Source: Flavobacteriaceae bacterium
GTDB lineage: Bacteria; Bacteroidota; Bacteroidia; Flavobacteriales; Flavobacteriaceae
DNA: 64,000 bases
NCBI GenBank assembly: GCA_036478895.1
Contig: JAZGEV010000011.1
Location: 25,836-89,835, forward strand
Reading direction: 5' to 3'
The position numbers were made by a program, and so were the translations under genes. Below, piece after piece: positions 26,058 to 57,112 of this stretch. Below the pieces are notes generated by a model, which was given only the letters and a program-made list of their open reading frames with translations, ran no database searches and was not told the origin of the DNA. Numbering within the stretch: the stretch's first letter is position 1; each line of letters opens with the position of its first letter.

Positions 26058-28664
26058 ATGGCCAAACCAAAAAGAGTAACGCCTTTAATGAAACAATACA
26101 ACGCAATTAAGGTGAAATATCCCGATGCGATGTTACTTTTTAGAGTAGGCGATTTCTACGAAACCTTTGGTGAAGATGCAAAAAAAGCAGCCAAAATATT
26201 AAACATTACCTTAACAAAACGTGGCGCAGGATCGGATAGTGAAACGGCTTTGGCTGGGTTTCCACATCACTCTATAAACACGTATTTACCTAAATTGGTG
26301 AAAGCTGGTTTGCGTGTGGCTATTTGCGATCAACTGGAAGATCCAAAACAAACCAAAACCATTGTAAAACGTGGCGTAACCGAATTAGTCACTCCTGGAG
26401 TTGCATTAAATGCCGATATTTTACAAGCCAAGAGTAATAATTTTTTAGCCGCAATTCATTTTTCAAAAAAGCAACAAATTGGTGTTTCGTTTTTAGATAT
26501 TTCTACAGGTGAATTCTTAACATCGCAAGGCAATGCAGAATATATAGACAAGTTATTGCAAAATTTTAAACCTAGCGAAATATTAGTACAAAAACAGTTT
26601 AAAAAACGCTTTTCGGATTCGTTTGGAGATCGGTTTCAAACCTTCTATTTGGACGATTGGGTTTTTCAAACCGATTATGCTAATGAGACTTTAAACGATC
26701 ATTTTAACATAAAATCACTGAAAGGTTTTGGAATTGATGATCTGGATTATGGTGTTATATCGGCTGGCGTAATTTTGTATTATTTGTCCGAAACCCAACA
26801 TCACAAATTAGCTCACATTACTGCTATTAAACGTATAGTTGCCGATGATTTTATTTGGATGGACCGCTTTACAATTCGTAATTTAGAACTGTATTATTCA
26901 ACAGCCGATGAAGCCGTAACTTTACTTGATGTGATTGATAATACCATTTCACCAATGGGCGGACGTTTATTAAAACGTTGGCTGGCTTTGCCTTTAAAAA
27001 ACATAAAAGCCATTCAAAATCGTCATGAAGTGGTGAAATATTTAATTGATGAAACTGCTTTTTATAAAACGGCAAGCTATCAAATAAATCAGATAAGTGA
27101 TATTGAGCGTCTTATTTCTAAAGTAGCAACGGGAAAAATAAATCCACGTGACGTAGTACTTTTAAAAGATTCGCTTAAAGCCATTTTACCCATTAAAGAA
27201 GCTGCAATGTTAAGTAAAAATAAAGCCTTAGCAGATTTGGGTAAACAATTACATACCTGTAGTGATTTAATTGCAGAAATTTCGCGTGTTTTAAATGCCA
27301 ATTCTCCTGTACATATTTCAAAAGGCAATGCTATTGCAAGTGGTGTCAATAAAGAACTCGATGAGTTGCGAGGCATCTCTAATTCTGGCAAAGACTATTT
27401 GGATAAAATGCTGCAACGCGAAACCGAACGTACCGGAATTACATCACTAAAAATTGCATCTAATAACGTTTTTGGATACTATATAGAAGTTAGAAATCGT
27501 TTTAAGGATCAAGTGCCCGAAGAATGGATTAGAAAGCAAACCTTAGTATCTGCCGAACGTTATATTACTGAAGAATTAAAAGAATACGAAGCCAAAATTT
27601 TAGGTGCCGAAGAGAAAATTAGTGCCTTAGAATTTGACTTATTTCAAGACTTATTACACTTTTTAATTAAGTATTTATTACCTGTTCAAAAAAATGCACA
27701 GCTCATAGCTAAGTTAGATTGCTTGTGTTCCTTTGCAAAAACTGCCGTCGATAATAATTACACACGACCAATTATGGATGAATCTACCGATTTGGAAATT
27801 AAAAATGGAAGGCATCCTGTTATCGAAAAACAATTACCAATTGGTGAAGAATATATTGCAAACGATGTGGTTTTAAACCGAAATCAACAGCAAATAATAA
27901 TGATTACTGGTCCAAATATGAGTGGTAAGTCAGCTATTTTAAGACAAACAGCTTTAATTGTTTTATTGGCGCAAATGGGTTCTTATGTGCCTGCTCAAAA
28001 TGCAAGAATTGGTGTAGTTGATAAAATTTTTACACGAGTTGGCGCTAGTGATAATATTTCTATGGGCGAATCTACTTTTATGGTAGAAATGAATGAAACG
28101 GCAAGTATTTTGAATAATTTATCAGATAGAAGTTTAATTTTACTAGATGAAATTGGAAGAGGAACAAGTACTTATGATGGGATTTCTATTGCTTGGGCAA
28201 TCGCCGAATATCTACACGAACATCCAACAAAAGCCAAAACATTATTCGCCACGCATTATCATGAATTAAACGATATGACCGAAACGTTTAAACGCATTAA
28301 AAACTTTAATGTATCGGTAAAAGAATTGAAAGATAATGTGATTTTCTTACGTAAATTAGTGCCTGGTGGAAGCGAGCATAGTTTTGGTATTCACGTAGCA
28401 AAATTGGCTGGAATGCCAACTTTAGTCATTCATAAAGCAAATAAAATATTAAAGCGTTTAGAAAAAAGTCATTCTTCTGATGAGATAAAAGAAAAATTAA
28501 AAACAGCTGCAACGGAAGATGTTCAGCTTAGTTTTTTTAAATTGGATGATCCGCTATTGGAAAATATAAAGGAGGAATTAATAGCAATAGATGTAAATAC
28601 CTTAACGCCTATTGAAGCTTTAATGAAATTAAACGAAATTAAACGTATGCTTGGTGAAAAATGA
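26058..28664 (+). CDS. mutS: DNA mismatch repair protein MutS
   Basis: TPLMKQY...FRVGDFYE N-terminus, Walker A GPNMSGKS, DEIGRGTSTYDG and THYHEL. Confidence 0.97.
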   Translation: MAKPKRVTPLMKQYNAIKVKYPDAMLLFRVGDFYETFGEDAKKAAKILNITLTKRGAGSDSETALAGFPHHSINTYLPKLVKAGLRVAICDQLEDPKQTKTIVKRGVTELVTPGVALNADILQAKSNNFLAAIHFSKKQQIGVSFLDISTGEFLTSQGNAEYIDKLLQNFKPSEILVQKQFKKRFSDSFGDRFQTFYLDDWVFQTDYANETLNDHFNIKSLKGFGIDDLDYGVISAGVILYYLSETQHHKLAHITAIKRIVADDFIWMDRFTIRNLELYYSTADEAVTLLDVIDNTISPMGGRLLKRWLALPLKNIKAIQNRHEVVKYLIDETAFYKTASYQINQISDIERLISKVATGKINPRDVVLLKDSLKAILPIKEAAMLSKNKALADLGKQLHTCSDLIAEISRVLNANSPVHISKGNAIASGVNKELDELRGISNSGKDYLDKMLQRETERTGITSLKIASNNVFGYYIEVRNRFKDQVPEEWIRKQTLVSAERYITEELKEYEAKILGAEEKISALEFDLFQDLLHFLIKYLLPVQKNAQLIAKLDCLCSFAKTAVDNNYTRPIMDESTDLEIKNGRHPVIEKQLPIGEEYIANDVVLNRNQQQIIMITGPNMSGKSAILRQTALIVLLAQMGSYVPAQNARIGVVDKIFTRVGASDNISMGESTFMVEMNETASILNNLSDRSLILLDEIGRGTSTYDGISIAWAIAEYLHEHPTKAKTLFATHYHELNDMTETFKRIKNFNVSVKELKDNVIFLRKLVPGGSEHSFGIHVAKLAGMPTLVIHKANKILKRLEKSHSSDEIKEKLKTAATEDVQLSFFKLDDPLLENIKEELIAIDVNTLTPIEALMKLNEIKRMLGEK

Positions 28665-45074: not shown

Positions 45075-46085
45075 ATGGCAGCAAAAGAAGATAAAGAAAA
45101 AGCAGCAAAACTAAAAGCATTACAACTTACACTAGATAAACTAGATAAAAGTTACGGTAAAGGTGCTGTAATGAAATTAGGCGATATAGTACATCAAGAT
45201 GTTGATGCAATATCATCGGGATCATTAGGATTGGATTTAGCCTTAGGAATTGGTGGATATCCAAGAGGTAGAGTTATTGAAATTTATGGACCAGAATCAT
45301 CGGGTAAAACTACTTTAGCAATTCACGCTATTGCAGAAGCACAAAAAGCAGGAGGCATTGCAGCATTTATTGATGCAGAACATGCTTTTGATCGTTTTTA
45401 TGCGGAGAATTTAGGCGTAGATATTGATAATTTAGTTATTTCTCAACCAGACTATGGAGAACAAGCTTTAGAAATTGCCGATAATTTAATTAGCTCTGGT
45501 GCAATTGATATTATTGTAATTGATTCTGTTGCAGCCTTAACACCAAAAAGTGAAATTGATGGCGAAATGGGTGATTCAAAAATGGGATTACACGCACGTT
45601 TAATGTCACAAGCTTTACGTAAATTAACAGGAACTATTAGTAAAACAAATTGTACAGTTATATTTATAAATCAATTACGTGAAAAAATAGGTGTAATGTT
45701 TGGTAATCCAGAAGTAACCACAGGTGGAAATGCCCTTAAATTTTATGCTTCGGTTCGTTTAGATATTCGTAGAAGAACTCAAATAAAAGATGGTGATAAA
45801 GTTATAGGTAATTTAACCAAAGTAAAAGTAGTTAAAAATAAAGTTGCACCACCTTTTCAGATAGCAGAATTTGATATTATGTATGGTAAAGGAATTTCTA
45901 AAGTTGGTGAAATTTTAGACCTTGCTGTAGAACATAATATTGTAAAGAAAAGTGGTTCTTGGTTTAGTTACGGTGAAACAAAATTAGGACAAGGACGCGA
46001 TGCTGTAAAAGGCTTAATAGCCGATAATCCTGAATTAATGGATGAACTAGAAACAAAAATATTTGATAGCTTAAAAGAAAAGTAA
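45075..46085 (+). CDS. recA: Recombinase RecA
   Basis: [18 protein letters not shown] Walker [10 protein letters not shown] and the [35 protein letters not shown] core. Confidence 0.98.
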
Positions 46086-52751: not shown

Positions 52752-53609
52752 ATGAATAAAAAAACTATTTTAATACTAATAGCTATAAATTTTATAGCTT
52801 ATTTTATTTTTTCCTTTTCGGATGCCGATGAAAAACAACAGGATTTTACGAGCACTGTTAAAGTATCTCTGCGCGATGTTGGTAATCAATTATTATTATC
52901 TAACAAAGATTCCACATCATTAGTAATGCCTGTATTATTACTCAATAATAACACATACGAACTGGCGTTTCAAAATAAACTTGCTATAGAACCTAATAAT
53001 TTGGTTGCTATGATAAAAAAAAGTTTAAAAAAAGCAGGCCTTCCAGATAATTATTTGGTTGAGGTTACCCAATGTAAAGATAAAGAAGTTGCCTATAGCT
53101 TTGTTATGAACAATACCGTAGATACTAGTATAATTCCTTGTAAAGGACGCATATTACCCAAAAGTTGTTACGTTGTTACCGTAAAATTTATAGAAAAACC
53201 AGTATCAAATAATAATAAATATTATTTATTATTATTTAGTTTAAGTACTTTAGCGCTCTTTTTTTTAATATTAAGAAAAAAGAAAGATACCATAATAGAA
53301 GACAATAAAGCACCATACACTGCTATTGGAAATTATAAATTTTATGAAGATGAAAATAAATTAATTTTTAAATCAAAAGACATTAAGTTATCAAAAAAAG
53401 AAAGTGAACTGTTATCGATTTTTATTACTCACAAAAACAAAATCATTAAACGAGACGATTTAATGAAACAAGTTTGGGAAGATCAAGGTGTTTTTGTTGG
53501 GAGAAGTTTAGATACCTATATTTCTAAACTTAGAAAAATTCTAAAAGACGATACTTCTATTAAATTAACCAATGTGCATGGCGTTGGTTATAAATTGGAA
53601 GTTAAATAG
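52752..53609 (+). CDS. Membrane-anchored winged-helix (OmpR/PhoB C-terminal type, ToxR-like) transcriptional regulator
   Basis: Two TM segments flank a roughly 135-aa extracytoplasmic domain. C-terminus reads LSKKESELLSIF...RDDLMKQVW...GRSLDTYISKLRKIL...VHGVGYKLEV. No receiver domain. Confidence 0.75.
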   Translation: MNKKTILILIAINFIAYFIFSFSDADEKQQDFTSTVKVSLRDVGNQLLLSNKDSTSLVMPVLLLNNNTYELAFQNKLAIEPNNLVAMIKKSLKKAGLPDNYLVEVTQCKDKEVAYSFVMNNTVDTSIIPCKGRILPKSCYVVTVKFIEKPVSNNNKYYLLLFSLSTLALFFLILRKKKDTIIEDNKAPYTAIGNYKFYEDENKLIFKSKDIKLSKKESELLSIFITHKNKIIKRDDLMKQVWEDQGVFVGRSLDTYISKLRKILKDDTSIKLTNVHGVGYKLEVK

Positions 53610-53676
53610 TAACTTATATTACAATAAAAGACAATTAAATCCTCTATTTTTGTATATCAATTTTAAACCTATAAAA

Positions 53677-54015
53677 ATGCACTACACAAATATATTAAAA
53701 GACCTTAATTACAACGATGATAAAGTAGCTATTTCGGTACTTTTTGAAACAGAAACTACTAAAGAAATTCGTATTTTATTCAAAAAAGGACAAGTAATGA
53801 AAAAACATCAAACATCTTTTCCTATTACTGTAACTATGGTAAAAGGCAACTTAGATTTTGGTGTAAACAATAAAATCCACACCTTAGTAAAAGGCGATAT
53901 TGTTTCTTTGGATGCTAGTATGCCTCACGATTTAAAAGCGAATAAAAAATCGATTGTACGTTTAACTTTAAGTAAACAAGATTCTGTGGAACGTGTTAGA
54001 AAAGTGAAGAATTAG
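53677..54015 (+). CDS. Cupin domain protein
   Basis: Start moved to MHYTNILKD. The KHQTSFPITVTMVKGNLDF...GDIVSLDASMPHDLKA pattern is cupin-like. Confidence 0.65.
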   Translation: MHYTNILKDLNYNDDKVAISVLFETETTKEIRILFKKGQVMKKHQTSFPITVTMVKGNLDFGVNNKIHTLVKGDIVSLDASMPHDLKANKKSIVRLTLSKQDSVERVRKVKN

Positions 54016-54017
54016 AC

Positions 54018-54046
54018 TTGATTATTAAAAAATTATTATATATTTG
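54018..54046 (+). promoter_or_regulatory. Bacteroidota-type promoter (TTG-N18-TATATTTG) for the trp leader/trpB transcript
   Basis: -33 TTG at 54018-54020 and a -7 TAnnTTTG match at 54039-54046. Confidence 0.55.
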
Positions 54047-54064
54047 AATTCAATTAAGCATATA

Positions 54065-54124
54065 ATGTACACAACTCAAAATACAAATTGGTGGCAAACA
54101 GTAAATTTCTTTAGGGAGACTTAA
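54065..54124 (+). CDS. Trp leader peptide (19 aa, tandem Trp codons)
   Basis: ATG TAC ACA ACT CAA AAT ACA AAT TGG TGG CAA ACA GTA AAT TTC TTT AGG GAG ACT TAA encodes MYTTQNTNWWQTVNFFRET. Followed by an intrinsic terminator before trpB. Confidence 0.7.
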   Translation: MYTTQNTNWWQTVNFFRET

Positions 54125-54157
54125 CTGCTTGTATCATTAATTTATAAATATAAACAG

Positions 54158-54184
54158 CCGTAGGTTTTCCCTACGGTTTTTTTT
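54158..54184 (+). terminator. Attenuator (intrinsic terminator) between the leader peptide and trpB
   Basis: CCGTAGG-ttttc-CCTACGG followed by T8, 45 nt upstream of the trpB ATG. Confidence 0.75.
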
Positions 54185-54228
54185 ATGCCCAATTTTTAAG
54201 AATATTAACCCATTTAAAACAAAAAACA

Positions 54229-55401
54229 ATGGAAACACAAACAAAAAACAAAGAAACAGAACAAAAAACAGGCTATTTTGGCGAATATGGCGGACAATTT
54301 GTTCCACCACATTTAGCAGAAAAATTAAATAACCTATATGATAATTTTTTAAAATTTAAAGACGATCCTACCTTTAAAGGCGAATTTAAATCGTTATTAC
54401 AAACCTATGTTGGACGACCTTCACCTTTATTTAAAGCAGAAAATTTATCAAAAATAATTGGCAGTACAATCTATTTAAAACGAGAAGATTTAAATCATAC
54501 AGGTTCGCATAAAATTAATAATACCATTGGTCAAATTTTATTAGCAAAGCGTATGGGAGCAACAGAAATTATTGCCGAAACTGGCGCAGGACAACATGGT
54601 GTTGCAACAGCAACTGCAGCTGCTTTAATGGGTATAAAATGTAAAATTTTTATGGGAAAAGTAGATTCCCAACGTCAAAAAATGAATGTAGAACGTATGT
54701 TGGTTCTTGGCGCTGAGGTTATTGAAGCAACTGCAGGAAATGCAACTTTAAAAGATGCCGTAGATGCTGCATTGGGTTATTATATAGAAAATCCCGATTC
54801 TTTTTATCTGTTAGGTTCTGCTGTTGGACCACATCCATATCCAACAATTGTGCGTTATTTTCAATCGGTTATTGGAGAAGAAATGAAAAAACAAATTGTA
54901 GAAATTGAAGGCAAACTTCCCGATGCTATTGTTGCTTGTATTGGTGGTGGATCTAACGCAATTGGTGCTTTTAGCCATTTTATTAATGATGATGTTGTAT
55001 TATATGGCGCAGAAGGCGCAGGAAAATCTATGGAATTGGGCGAAACAGCTGCAACTTTAACATTAGGGAAAGATTTGGTTTTTCAAGGCGCATTTTCAAA
55101 ATGTTTGGTGGATGCAAGTAATGAACCATTGGCGTCAAAAAGTATTGCTGCAGGTTTAGATTATCCAGGAATAGGACCAGAACATGCACATCTTAAAATG
55201 ATAGATAGAGTTTCATATCATCCCATTACCGATGATGAAGCTGTAGCAGCATATCGATTATTATCAGTTAAAGAAGGGATTATTCCTGCAATAGAATCGG
55301 CTCATGCGGTTGCTTTAACGACCAAATTATTTAAAGATAAAAATAAGTTGGTTGTCATAAATTTATCTGGTAGAGGAGATAAAGATGTGAGTAGGTTGTG
55401 A
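54229..55401 (+). CDS. trpB: Tryptophan synthase beta chain (stand-alone)
   Basis: GYFGEYGGQFVPP, REDLNHTGSHKINN (PLP lysine), GAGQHGVATA and the GGGSNAIG motifs. No trpA adjacent. Confidence 0.95.
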   Translation: METQTKNKETEQKTGYFGEYGGQFVPPHLAEKLNNLYDNFLKFKDDPTFKGEFKSLLQTYVGRPSPLFKAENLSKIIGSTIYLKREDLNHTGSHKINNTIGQILLAKRMGATEIIAETGAGQHGVATATAAALMGIKCKIFMGKVDSQRQKMNVERMLVLGAEVIEATAGNATLKDAVDAALGYYIENPDSFYLLGSAVGPHPYPTIVRYFQSVIGEEMKKQIVEIEGKLPDAIVACIGGGSNAIGAFSHFINDDVVLYGAEGAGKSMELGETAATLTLGKDLVFQGAFSKCLVDASNEPLASKSIAAGLDYPGIGPEHAHLKMIDRVSYHPITDDEAVAAYRLLSVKEGIIPAIESAHAVALTTKLFKDKNKLVVINLSGRGDKDVSRL

Positions 55402-55555
55402 ATAAAACAGTTTAATTCAAAAAGTTAATATCCGTAAAGAATAGATTATTTTTTTATGGATTTTTTTATTTTAAACTACTTTTTTAATATCAACTTTTAA
55501 AATAGTACTCTGTGTTTCTTTGTGCATCTCTGTGAAATAATCTTATTTTTGCAAC

Positions 55556-57112
55556 ATGGTAAAAGAAATTCAAATAAGAATAAACTTACACGAAGAAGGA
55601 AAAGATAATATCTTAAAACGAAAAGCTGCTTATTTATTGGATGTTGATATTAATGATATTACTGCCATAAAAGTTTTACGAAAATCGATTGATGCACGTA
55701 AAGCCGACATAAAATTTAACTATAAAATGGCTGTTTATATCAAGGAATCTATTCCCGAAACATCGGATTATAAGTTTGATTATAAAGACGTTTCTAAAGC
55801 AAAAGAAATTCATATAATTGGTTTTGGTCCTGCTGGAATGTATGCTGCATTACGTTGCATTGAATTAGGTTATAAACCAATAGTTCTGGAACGTGGGAAG
55901 AATGTACAAGATCGCCGTAGGGATTTAAAAGCAATAAACCAAGAGCATCATGTGGATTCAGATTCTAATTATTGTTTTGGCGAAGGTGGCGCCGGAACCT
56001 ATTCCGACGGAAAATTATACACGCGTTCTTTAAAACGTGGCGATGTACGACGTATTTTTGAAAACTTAGTTTTTCACGGTGCAACCGAACAAATATTAAT
56101 TGATGCACATCCACATATTGGTACCAATAAATTACCCAAAGTAGTTACAAATATTAGAGAAACGATTTTAAAATTTGGTGGCGAAATTCATTTTGAATCT
56201 CGTGTCGTTGATTTTAAAATTAAAAATAATAAAATACAAGCCATTCAGCTTAAAAATGGCAATGAAATGTCAGTAAAAGTTGTAATTTTAGCAACAGGTC
56301 ATTCGGCTAGAGATATTTACGAATTATTACATAAAAAAGACATCGCTTTAAAAGCAAAATCGTTTGCAATGGGCGTAAGAGTAGAACATCCGCAACAAAT
56401 TATAGATGGTATTCAATATCATTGTTCTGGTAAACGAAGCGATTTATTACCTGCAGCAAGTTATAGTTTGGTACAACAAGTTTCGGGTAGAGGCGTGTAT
56501 TCATTTTGTATGTGTCCTGGCGGATTTATTGTGCCGGCAGCAACAGCAAATGGTGAAATTGTAGTGAATGGTATGTCACCGTCAAAACGGAATAATTTGT
56601 TTGCAAATTCAGGCATTGTAGTAGAAATTAATGCTGATGAAGATTTAAAAAAATACGCGCAATTTGGTGTTTTAAAAGGCTTGGAATTTCAAAAAGATTT
56701 AGAAAAACTAGCTTGGCAAGCTGGCGGAAGAACCCAAGCTGCACCAGCCCAAAGATTAACAGATTTTGTAGAAGGAAAGTTATCTAACGACTTAAATTTA
56801 ACGTCTTATCAGCCAGGTTTAAAATCGGCACCATTACATTCCTTATTACCAAAAATAATTGGCGGTAGATTAAGAAAAGGATTCAAAGCATTTGGTCAAA
56901 AAATGAACGGTTTTTATACCGATGAAGCCAACGTAATTGGTGTGGAATCCAGAACTTCCTCACCAGTTAATATTCCAAGACAAGATAACCTATCGCATCC
57001 TCAAATAGAAGGCCTTTTTCCGTGTGGCGAAGGTGGCGGATATGCAGGTGGCATAATTTCTGCAGCTATGGATGGTGAACGCTGTGCAGAAGCGGCTGTT
57101 AAATTAATGTAA
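55556..57112 (+). CDS. FAD-dependent oxidoreductase (COG2509-like)
   Basis: IIGFGPAGMYAAL dinucleotide fold, GEGGAGTYSDGKL and C-terminal GEGGGYAGGIISAAMDG. Confidence 0.8.
   Translation: MVKEIQIRINLHEEGKDNILKRKAAYLLDVDINDITAIKVLRKSIDARKADIKFNYKMAVYIKESIPETSDYKFDYKDVSKAKEIHIIGFGPAGMYAALRCIELGYKPIVLERGKNVQDRRRDLKAINQEHHVDSDSNYCFGEGGAGTYSDGKLYTRSLKRGDVRRIFENLVFHGATEQILIDAHPHIGTNKLPKVVTNIRETILKFGGEIHFESRVVDFKIKNNKIQAIQLKNGNEMSVKVVILATGHSARDIYELLHKKDIALKAKSFAMGVRVEHPQQIIDGIQYHCSGKRSDLLPAASYSLVQQVSGRGVYSFCMCPGGFIVPAATANGEIVVNGMSPSKRNNLFANSGIVVEINADEDLKKYAQFGVLKGLEFQKDLEKLAWQAGGRTQAAPAQRLTDFVEGKLSNDLNLTSYQPGLKSAPLHSLLPKIIGGRLRKGFKAFGQKMNGFYTDEANVIGVESRTSSPVNIPRQDNLSHPQIEGLFPCGEGGGYAGGIISAAMDGERCAEAAVKLM

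Follow-up and report, generated by a model that had tools for sequence, protein, structure and literature searches.

A probable ribosome-mediated tryptophan attenuator, related to the Bacteroid-trp leader RNA, ahead of a solitary trpB gene

Introduction

How is a trpB gene controlled when it stands without other trp genes nearby? The question is raised by a 64-kb stretch of Flavobacteriaceae DNA (contig JAZGEV010000011.1; "the window" means this whole stretch), in which trpB is preceded by a short open reading frame (ORF) with two adjacent Trp codons and by an intrinsic terminator. A sequence-only reading of the window had proposed that this leader is a ribosome-mediated Trp attenuator ahead of a trpB that lacks trpA. 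The analysis described here supported the proposal through a conserved W-containing mini-ORF and an antiterminator that excludes the terminator. The leader is very probably a transcription attenuator that, like E. coli trpL, acts through a ribosome translating a leader peptide; it is a diverged member of the RNA family RF01692 and would here control the solitary trpB. Trp attenuators were reportedly described in Bacteroidetes/Chlorobi by Vitreschak et al. in 2004.

Leader ahead of trpB

The features of the locus that are visible in the sequence are listed below.

54018..54046, + strand: candidate promoter of the Bacteroidota type, with TTG at 54018-54020, an 18-nt spacer and the -7 box TATATTTG at 54039-54046.
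54065..54124, + strand: 19-codon leader ORF and its stop, MYTTQNTNWWQTVNFFRET, with ATG at 54065 and TAA at 54122-54124; homologous ORFs occur in 14 related loci.
54089..54094, + strand: UGG UGG, two Trp codons in tandem and the putative sensing site; near-invariant columns in the 14-sequence alignment.
54156..54184, + strand: intrinsic terminator (attenuator), with a 9-bp stem of 54156-54164 with 54170-54178, a 5-nt loop and T8 at 54177-54184.
54229..55401, + strand: solitary trpB of the TrpB1 type, 390 aa, TIGR00263 520 bits (cut-off 392).

The Bacteroidota -7 consensus is TAnnTTTG, and TATATTTG fits it. A motif scan from the stop of the upstream gene (54015) to trpB found this box as the only TAnnTTTG, and in the homologous loci a TAnnTTTG-like box could be seen by eye about as far ahead of the leader ATG. 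The TTG-N18-TATATTTG motif, the 19-codon ORF and the UGG UGG pair all lie where the sequence-only reading had placed them. Thus, a short ORF with clustered Trp codons stands ahead of trpB, and an intrinsic terminator sits between the two. The terminator core CCGTAGG-ttttc-CCTACGG (54158-54176) and T8 were likewise found where they had been described; a pattern scan lengthened the stem to nine pairs, five of them G-C. The distance from the T-run to the trpB ATG had been given as 45 nt and is 44 nt. Within 52-58 kb, this was the top-ranked terminator-like site.

The hexamer TGGTGG alone is uninformative because it is common in the window (43 copies, mostly within coding sequence). Both strands of the window were scanned for the composite of an ATG mini-ORF with any doubled residue and a nearby terminator. 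The combination of an ATG mini-ORF containing WW with a hairpin and T-run at most 75 nt further on occurred once in 64 kb, and that occurrence is this leader. Folding of the leader was also better than that of shuffled sequences (z = -2.5; 2 of 200 shuffles were equally good). The leader composite is more than chance.

The hairpin and T8 could be the terminator or an insulator of the upstream cupin-like gene, with a chance WW mini-ORF and a constitutive trpB promoter. That gene shares the strand of the leader and stops at 54015 with no other terminator evident, and the frequency of TGGTGG in the window favors chance. The promoter motif speaks against this explanation: TAnnTTTG lies directly ahead of the mini-ORF, and the motif scan found none between the terminator and trpB. 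The comparison with related loci, given below, tells further against it.

Alternative folds of the leader RNA

The RNA from the leader AUG through the end of the terminator 3' arm was folded with ribosome-covered nucleotides forced to be unpaired. The ribosome mask reached 13 nt past the first base of the A-site codon. The fold depended on the position of the ribosome, as follows.

No ribosome: 54085-54104 pairs with 54121-54143 and the terminator forms; -26.8 kcal/mol; terminator probability 0.94.
Ribosome stalled on either UGG: helix of 54109-54134 with 54148-54176; -16.7 kcal/mol; terminator probability 0.14-0.21.
Ribosome at the stop codon: with 54109-54135 covered, the terminator alone remains; -12.8 kcal/mol; terminator probability 0.94.

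Two helices besides the terminator were predicted.

54085..54143, + strand: helix 1:2 (anti-antiterminator), present in the minimum-energy and centroid folds and corresponding to the hairpin of the RF01692 model.
54109..54176, + strand: antiterminator, with 5' strand 54109-54134 pairing with 54148-54176 in the stalled-ribosome fold.

In helix 1:2, the Trp codons lie in the 5' strand (54085-54104), the 3' strand is 54121-54143, and a small apical hairpin (54106-54119) stands between them. The minimum-energy fold leaves the leader AUG unpaired. The antiterminator 5' strand consists of the last ORF codons, the stop codon and 10 nt beyond. Its 3' strand comprises the 3' half of the terminator 5' arm, the loop and most of the 3' arm. 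The stalled-state helix includes CUGCUUGUAU:AUAUAAACAG, followed by CUUA:UAGG and UAGGGAGA:UUUCCCUA, and occupies both arms of the terminator. The antiterminator 5' strand starts 4-7 nt past the RNA masked by a ribosome stalled on UGG, and a terminating ribosome covers it entirely.

Two candidate pairings had been proposed before any folding. That of 54095-54102 with 54124-54131 appeared in the unconstrained minimum-energy fold, as 54094-54102 with 54124-54132; that of 54125-54134 with 54148-54157 (CUGCUUGUAU:AUAUAAACAG) appeared when the ribosome was stalled on the Trp codons. An antiterminator does exist as proposed, but the idea that it merely abuts the terminator did not hold, since the helix reaches into both terminator arms. 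Constrained folding of the window thus returned an antiterminator that excludes the terminator, with its formation set by ribosome position.

Proposed mechanism

Transcription would start a few nucleotides past the TATATTTG box, and a ribosome would start on the 19-codon leader as RNA polymerase proceeds. When charged tRNA-Trp is plentiful, the ribosome would reach the stop codon at 54122-54124 and cover about 54109-54135, including the antiterminator 5' strand. The terminator hairpin 54156-54178 with T8 would then form, and transcription would stop before trpB. If the leader is untranslated, 54085-54104 would pair with 54121-54143, and the terminator could again form. Under a shortage of charged tRNA-Trp, the ribosome would stall with UGG in the A site and cover the RNA only to about 54102-54105. 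The stall would free 54109-54134 to pair with 54148-54176, both terminator arms would be taken, and the polymerase would read into trpB. Four parts of this scheme were inferred: leader translation, transcription-translation coupling, the tryptophan response and the physiological role. The likely role is synthesis of Trp from indole and serine without TrpA.

Conservation among related leaders

Relatives were collected by a TrpB protein search of public genomes and metagenomes; they are 62-86% identical to the window TrpB and mostly come from metagenome-assembled genomes (MAGs) labelled Bacteroidales; the genome of the window was not among the matches. At 14 loci (13 distinct sequences; TrpB 64-86% identical), a WW or WWW mini-ORF followed by a terminator was found upstream of a solitary trpB. 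Conservation of the WW peptide in relatives, which the sequence-only reading had named as a check, was thereby confirmed. Examples of the peptide are MFTIQNTNWWQIRKLHSGT, MKNINLNNWWWQIVNLRNGN and MKRYSNIWWWHKLIRKQGD. In every case, an in-frame ATG precedes the W run by 7-10 codons. The run is usually followed by nine codons whose peptide sequence varies and whose length is kept, and a G+C-rich hairpin with a T-run lies 22-39 nt after the mini-ORF stop.

A composite scan of 160 loci on both strands gave 22 matches. All 22 were on the trpB strand, and 20 were just upstream of trp genes. An nhmmer profile built from 13 leaders of the clade, with the window left out, found 54054-54184 with E = 2.6e-16 as its sole match in the window.

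The genes beside trpB vary among the related loci, and many are on the opposite strand. Because the neighboring genes differ by locus and are often on the other strand, the terminator is not that of an upstream gene. The invariable in-frame position of the W run 7-10 codons after an ATG also argues against a chance mini-ORF. An upstream-gene terminator combined with a constitutive trpB promoter is, therefore, a most improbable explanation of the window leader.

The same comparison bears on a TnaC-like mechanism, in which arrest of the nascent peptide would sense free tryptophan or indole and trpB would be on at high ligand, for example for indole detoxification. Such a role would suit the relatives in which tnaA adjoins trpB, and many relatives have a second W-containing mini-ORF. 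The TnaC pattern is W...D...P. This pattern is absent from the leader peptide, the peptide after the W run varies in sequence with constant length, and an intrinsic terminator is found instead of a Rho site. The geometry also suits stalling by starvation, with the antiterminator 5' strand just outside the footprint of the stalled ribosome. A TnaC-like arrest was accordingly considered very unlikely.

Family membership

At the Rfam gathering threshold, no match was found in the whole window. RF01692 (Bacteroid-trp, Bacteroidete tryptophan peptide leader RNA) is a cis-regulatory, non-riboswitch motif of Bacteroidetes (Weinberg 2010, PMC2864571), and it lies upstream of the Flavobacterium psychrophilum trp operon (Rochat 2019, PMC6414381). 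Window positions 54045-54170 aligned with positions 1-131 of this model, which is the full model.

The profile of the clade leaders also matched canonical trp-operon leaders, among them L073 with 4.6e-7, L063 with 4.8e-6 and L068 with 5.9e-6 (loci of the comparison carry L numbers). L073 (Flavobacterium paronense, trpEGDCFBA operon) exceeds the RF01692 threshold with 67 bits, as does L066 (Paludibacteraceae, trpBEGDCFA operon) with 52 bits. The threshold was reached by none of the 13 solitary-trpB leaders scanned. Because the clade profile matches both groups, the solitary-trpB leaders are homologous to the canonical trp-operon leaders, and through L073 this homology extends to an accepted member of RF01692. 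The setting also agrees with the family: trpB lies downstream, a TAnnTTTG box is present, and the nearest relatives are Bacteroidales MAGs; the host assignment is indirect. From these sequence comparisons, the window leader is a diverged, unannotated, sub-threshold member of RF01692, and its kind is already catalogued. In L063, a Bacteroidales MAG, tandem WWW leader ORFs (1079-1177 and 1258-1320), each with a terminator, were observed ahead of trpEGDCFBA.

Trp sensing without translation was weighed at this point. The sensor would then be a riboswitch, a T-box-like element that binds tRNA or the target of a TRAP-like protein, and the ORF would be incidental. Trp T-boxes precede solitary trpB genes of the sister branch in Firmicutes and Izemoplasmatales, and a trpB-motif riboswitch candidate, RF04312, exists in Firmicutes and Fusobacteria (PMC11109978). 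No T-box or other riboswitch family was found at the Rfam threshold, no (G/U)AG repeat array was seen on reading the leader sequence, and the relatives keep an in-frame ATG, W run and stop at fixed spacing with a terminator, which is not like a ligand-pocket core. Translation-independent sensing was therefore given little credence. All three rival explanations are disfavored by the conservation pattern and the geometry.

Two particular identities were rejected. RF04312, second to RF01692 in the permissive Rfam scan, matched the window weakly, with 20.1 bits against a threshold of 59; the alignment covered mainly the terminator, and the host phyla differ. A Trp T-box gave no match at any listed E-value, and the core GGTGGCACC(A/G)CG, present in the Firmicutes relatives, is not in the window.

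Structural support across relatives

The terminator is well supported, with compensatory changes at six of nine pairs across 14 homologs. How well the ORF end complements the terminator was examined with the segment that a stalled ribosome leaves exposed and a ribosome at the stop codon covers. Against shuffles, the window gave z = -2.9, and the mean over 15 loci was -1.2. Cognate ORF ends and terminators paired at -11.3 kcal/mol compared with -9.0 kcal/mol for non-cognate combinations (permutation p = 0.0009). By eye, changes in a purine-rich motif near the end of the ORF are mirrored in the loop and 3' arm of the terminator (GGGAGA-UUUCCC, GGAAAA-UUUUCC, AGGGGG-CCCCCU and GGGGAACU-AGUUCCCC). 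Three sequences (the window, L081 and L001) could be aligned over the upstream helices. In these, about 80% of positions pair for helix 1:2 and the antiterminator versus 33-57% in slid controls, with few double changes; these counts agree with both helices and fall short of statistical proof. Helix 1:2 showed one compensatory change from G-C to C-G and several one-sided changes.

Several results weigh against the proposed attenuator and its family assignment. When 14 leaders were aligned with MAFFT, RNAalifold returned the terminator as the sole consensus helix; the upstream helices shift too much in position for sequence-based alignment. With three alignable sequences, helix 1:2 and the antiterminator show weak covariation. 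In most homologs, the stall mask leaves the terminator dominant at equilibrium, and a clear thermodynamic switch is limited to the window, L008 and partly L002. An E. coli trpL control, with its sequence entered by hand, likewise kept the terminator dominant; because of this, the equilibrium-fold test was considered insensitive, and a negative outcome in it would not refute the attenuator. In the permissive Rfam scan, RF01692 was the top family but scored 26.3 bits versus a threshold of 49 (search of 241 nt against 4227 families, E = 0.48). For this organism, coupling of transcription to translation is an assumption, and no experiment that validates a Trp leader of Bacteroidetes was found in the searchable literature. 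Taken together, these results give the leader structure mixed support across the relatives.

TrpB lineage and genomic context

The window protein scored 177 bits with the TrpB2-like model TIGR01415, below the cut-off of 519, and the closest solved structures in the PDB are TrpB1 proteins. A look-up of the exact protein sequence gave no record. The remark that no trpA follows trpB proved correct: none of trpA, C, D, E, F, G and tnaA was found in the 64-kb window, and the next gene encodes a FAD-dependent protein (PF21688). The flanks were without trp neighbors at all 17 loci with TrpB at least 62% identical.

A neighbor-joining tree of 161 TrpB sequences, from a biased sample and without bootstrap, placed the window in a 16-leaf clade of solitary trpB. 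Fifteen of these leaves have a W-leader, and L082 has no upstream sequence. The clade lies inside a 40-leaf clade without an operon-encoded member, all operon-encoded TrpB (119 of 161) being outside it. The larger clade takes in the Firmicutes and Izemoplasmatales trpB genes preceded by Trp T-boxes. The context is somewhat new, with a self-contained leader-trpB cassette that has no trp genes nearby and belongs to a TrpB lineage solitary in all recovered loci. A literature search found no Trp attenuator described for a Bacteroidetes trpB that stands alone.

The closest relative, L081, was compared with the window. The leaders (54064-54202 and L081:1027-1167) have 81% nucleotide identity. The spacers (54203-54238 and L081:1168-1501) differ by about 300 nt; leader and trpB are common to the two loci, and the flanking genes differ. 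No conserved neighbors of the cupin, winged-helix and FAD-dependent genes of the window were found near trpB in other loci. The comparison suggests that the leader-trpB unit relocates as a cassette.

In L006, L007 and L086, tnaA is convergent with the leader-controlled solitary trpB (L006:2557-3933, L007:7356-8732 and L086:2800-3255, all on the minus strand). The tnaA genes of L006 and L007 scored about 860 bits with NF053783, and that of L086 was found by tblastn. The context of the window trpB would fit a self-contained indole-to-tryptophan salvage unit that is induced by shortage of Trp-tRNA, and this salvage role can reasonably be inferred from it.

Short ORFs were also observed between the leader terminator and trpB. 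Many relatives have there a second W-containing mini-ORF (L081:1175-1234, L003:5851-5946, L086:1391-1435, L006:1094-1150, L007:5886-5936, L010:5857-5919, L005:697-771 and L084:1332-1406). It often ends in F-R-W-R-(H/C/N) and a stop, or has WWWR followed by a GC hairpin. The window, with a T8-trpB gap of just 44 nt, is without it. The second mini-ORF may be a second attenuator or a layer of translational control. In the T-box branch, a conserved tiny ORF ATGGGACCTTGA (M-G-P-stop) stands just after the T-box terminator and before trpB in L011 and L014, behind a Shine-Dalgarno-like AGGAGG. Similar four-codon ORFs ending in TGA lie between the Trp T-box and trpB in L016 and L019.

A wider and tentative scheme, which is possible and somewhat doubtful as a whole, would join these observations. 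It takes the TrpB1 lineage, solitary in the recovered loci, as a mobile cassette for TrpA-free indole salvage. Control by tRNA-Trp would have evolved twice in it, as a leader peptide derived from Bacteroid-trp in Bacteroidota and as a T-box in Firmicutes and Izemoplasmatales. The R-W-R mini-ORF, with its one Trp codon between Arg codons, would be an extra and so far undescribed layer of control in many Bacteroidota relatives and not in the window.

Flanking genes

Upstream of the leader, a 285-aa protein (52752-53609) has only a C-terminal OmpR-type winged-helix domain, with no receiver domain detected. The cupin-like ORF (53572-54015, 147 aa) overlaps this gene by 38 nt and ends 2 nt before the leader promoter motif. 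Downstream, the gene for the FAD-dependent protein occupies 55556-57112. Between it and trpB, only a weak hairpin with T7 was found at 55430-55467 (two G-C pairs, 14-nt loop), and within 55544-55556 the TAnnTTTG box TATTTTTG lies 4 nt from the annotated ATG. Because the hairpin is weak and the box is just 4 nt from the ATG, the start of this gene or its independence from trpB is uncertain, and it may be co-transcribed with trpB. The window has 29% G+C and contains recA (45075-46085) and mutS (26058-28664). No tRNA or other Rfam family was found at threshold in the 64 kb.

Significance

The Bacteroid-trp model of Rfam misses a whole branch of Trp leaders, as the scan of solitary-trpB leaders indicated (0 of 13 at threshold). 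For that reason, annotation pipelines leave such solitary trpB genes looking unregulated. Leader-peptide attenuation requires transcription-translation coupling, for which this compact, monocistronic, predicted switch would be a convenient test case in Bacteroidota. A lone TrpB induced by Trp starvation would also bear on the exchange of indole and tryptophan in microbial communities; in some relatives, tryptophanase adjoins the gene.

Comparison with known systems

The window leader resembles E. coli trpL in having a short leader ORF with two neighboring Trp codons, the four-segment logic of 1:2, 2:3 and 3:4, and an intrinsic terminator before the first structural gene, with the ribosome position predicted to decide the outcome. 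It differs from trpL in that no sequence homology was detectable (Rfam Trp_leader was unmatched) and that its promoter is of the Bacteroidota type. The antiterminator 5' strand of the window lies within the last ORF codons, and the helix reaches the terminator loop and 3' arm. The window leader also precedes trpB only.

With RF01692, the window shares a setting of the Bacteroidota type ahead of a Trp-synthesis gene and a short UGG-run ORF preceded by a like AAUAC...UGGUGG sequence. Also shared are a hairpin whose 5' strand contains the Trp codons and the AU-rich UAUAAAUAUA stretch followed by a terminator. Many pairs of the model are non-canonical in the window, which has two Trp codons instead of the usual three and precedes a solitary trpB instead of a trpEGDCFBA or trpBEGDCFA operon.

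The Trp T-box leaders of Firmicutes and Izemoplasmatales (L011, L013-L017 and L019) regulate trpB genes of the branch sister to that of the window, within one solitary TrpB lineage. They too read the charging of tRNA-Trp through a choice between terminator and antiterminator. In contrast to the window leader, to which they are unrelated in sequence, they sense uncharged tRNA by direct RNA-tRNA pairing, without a leader peptide.

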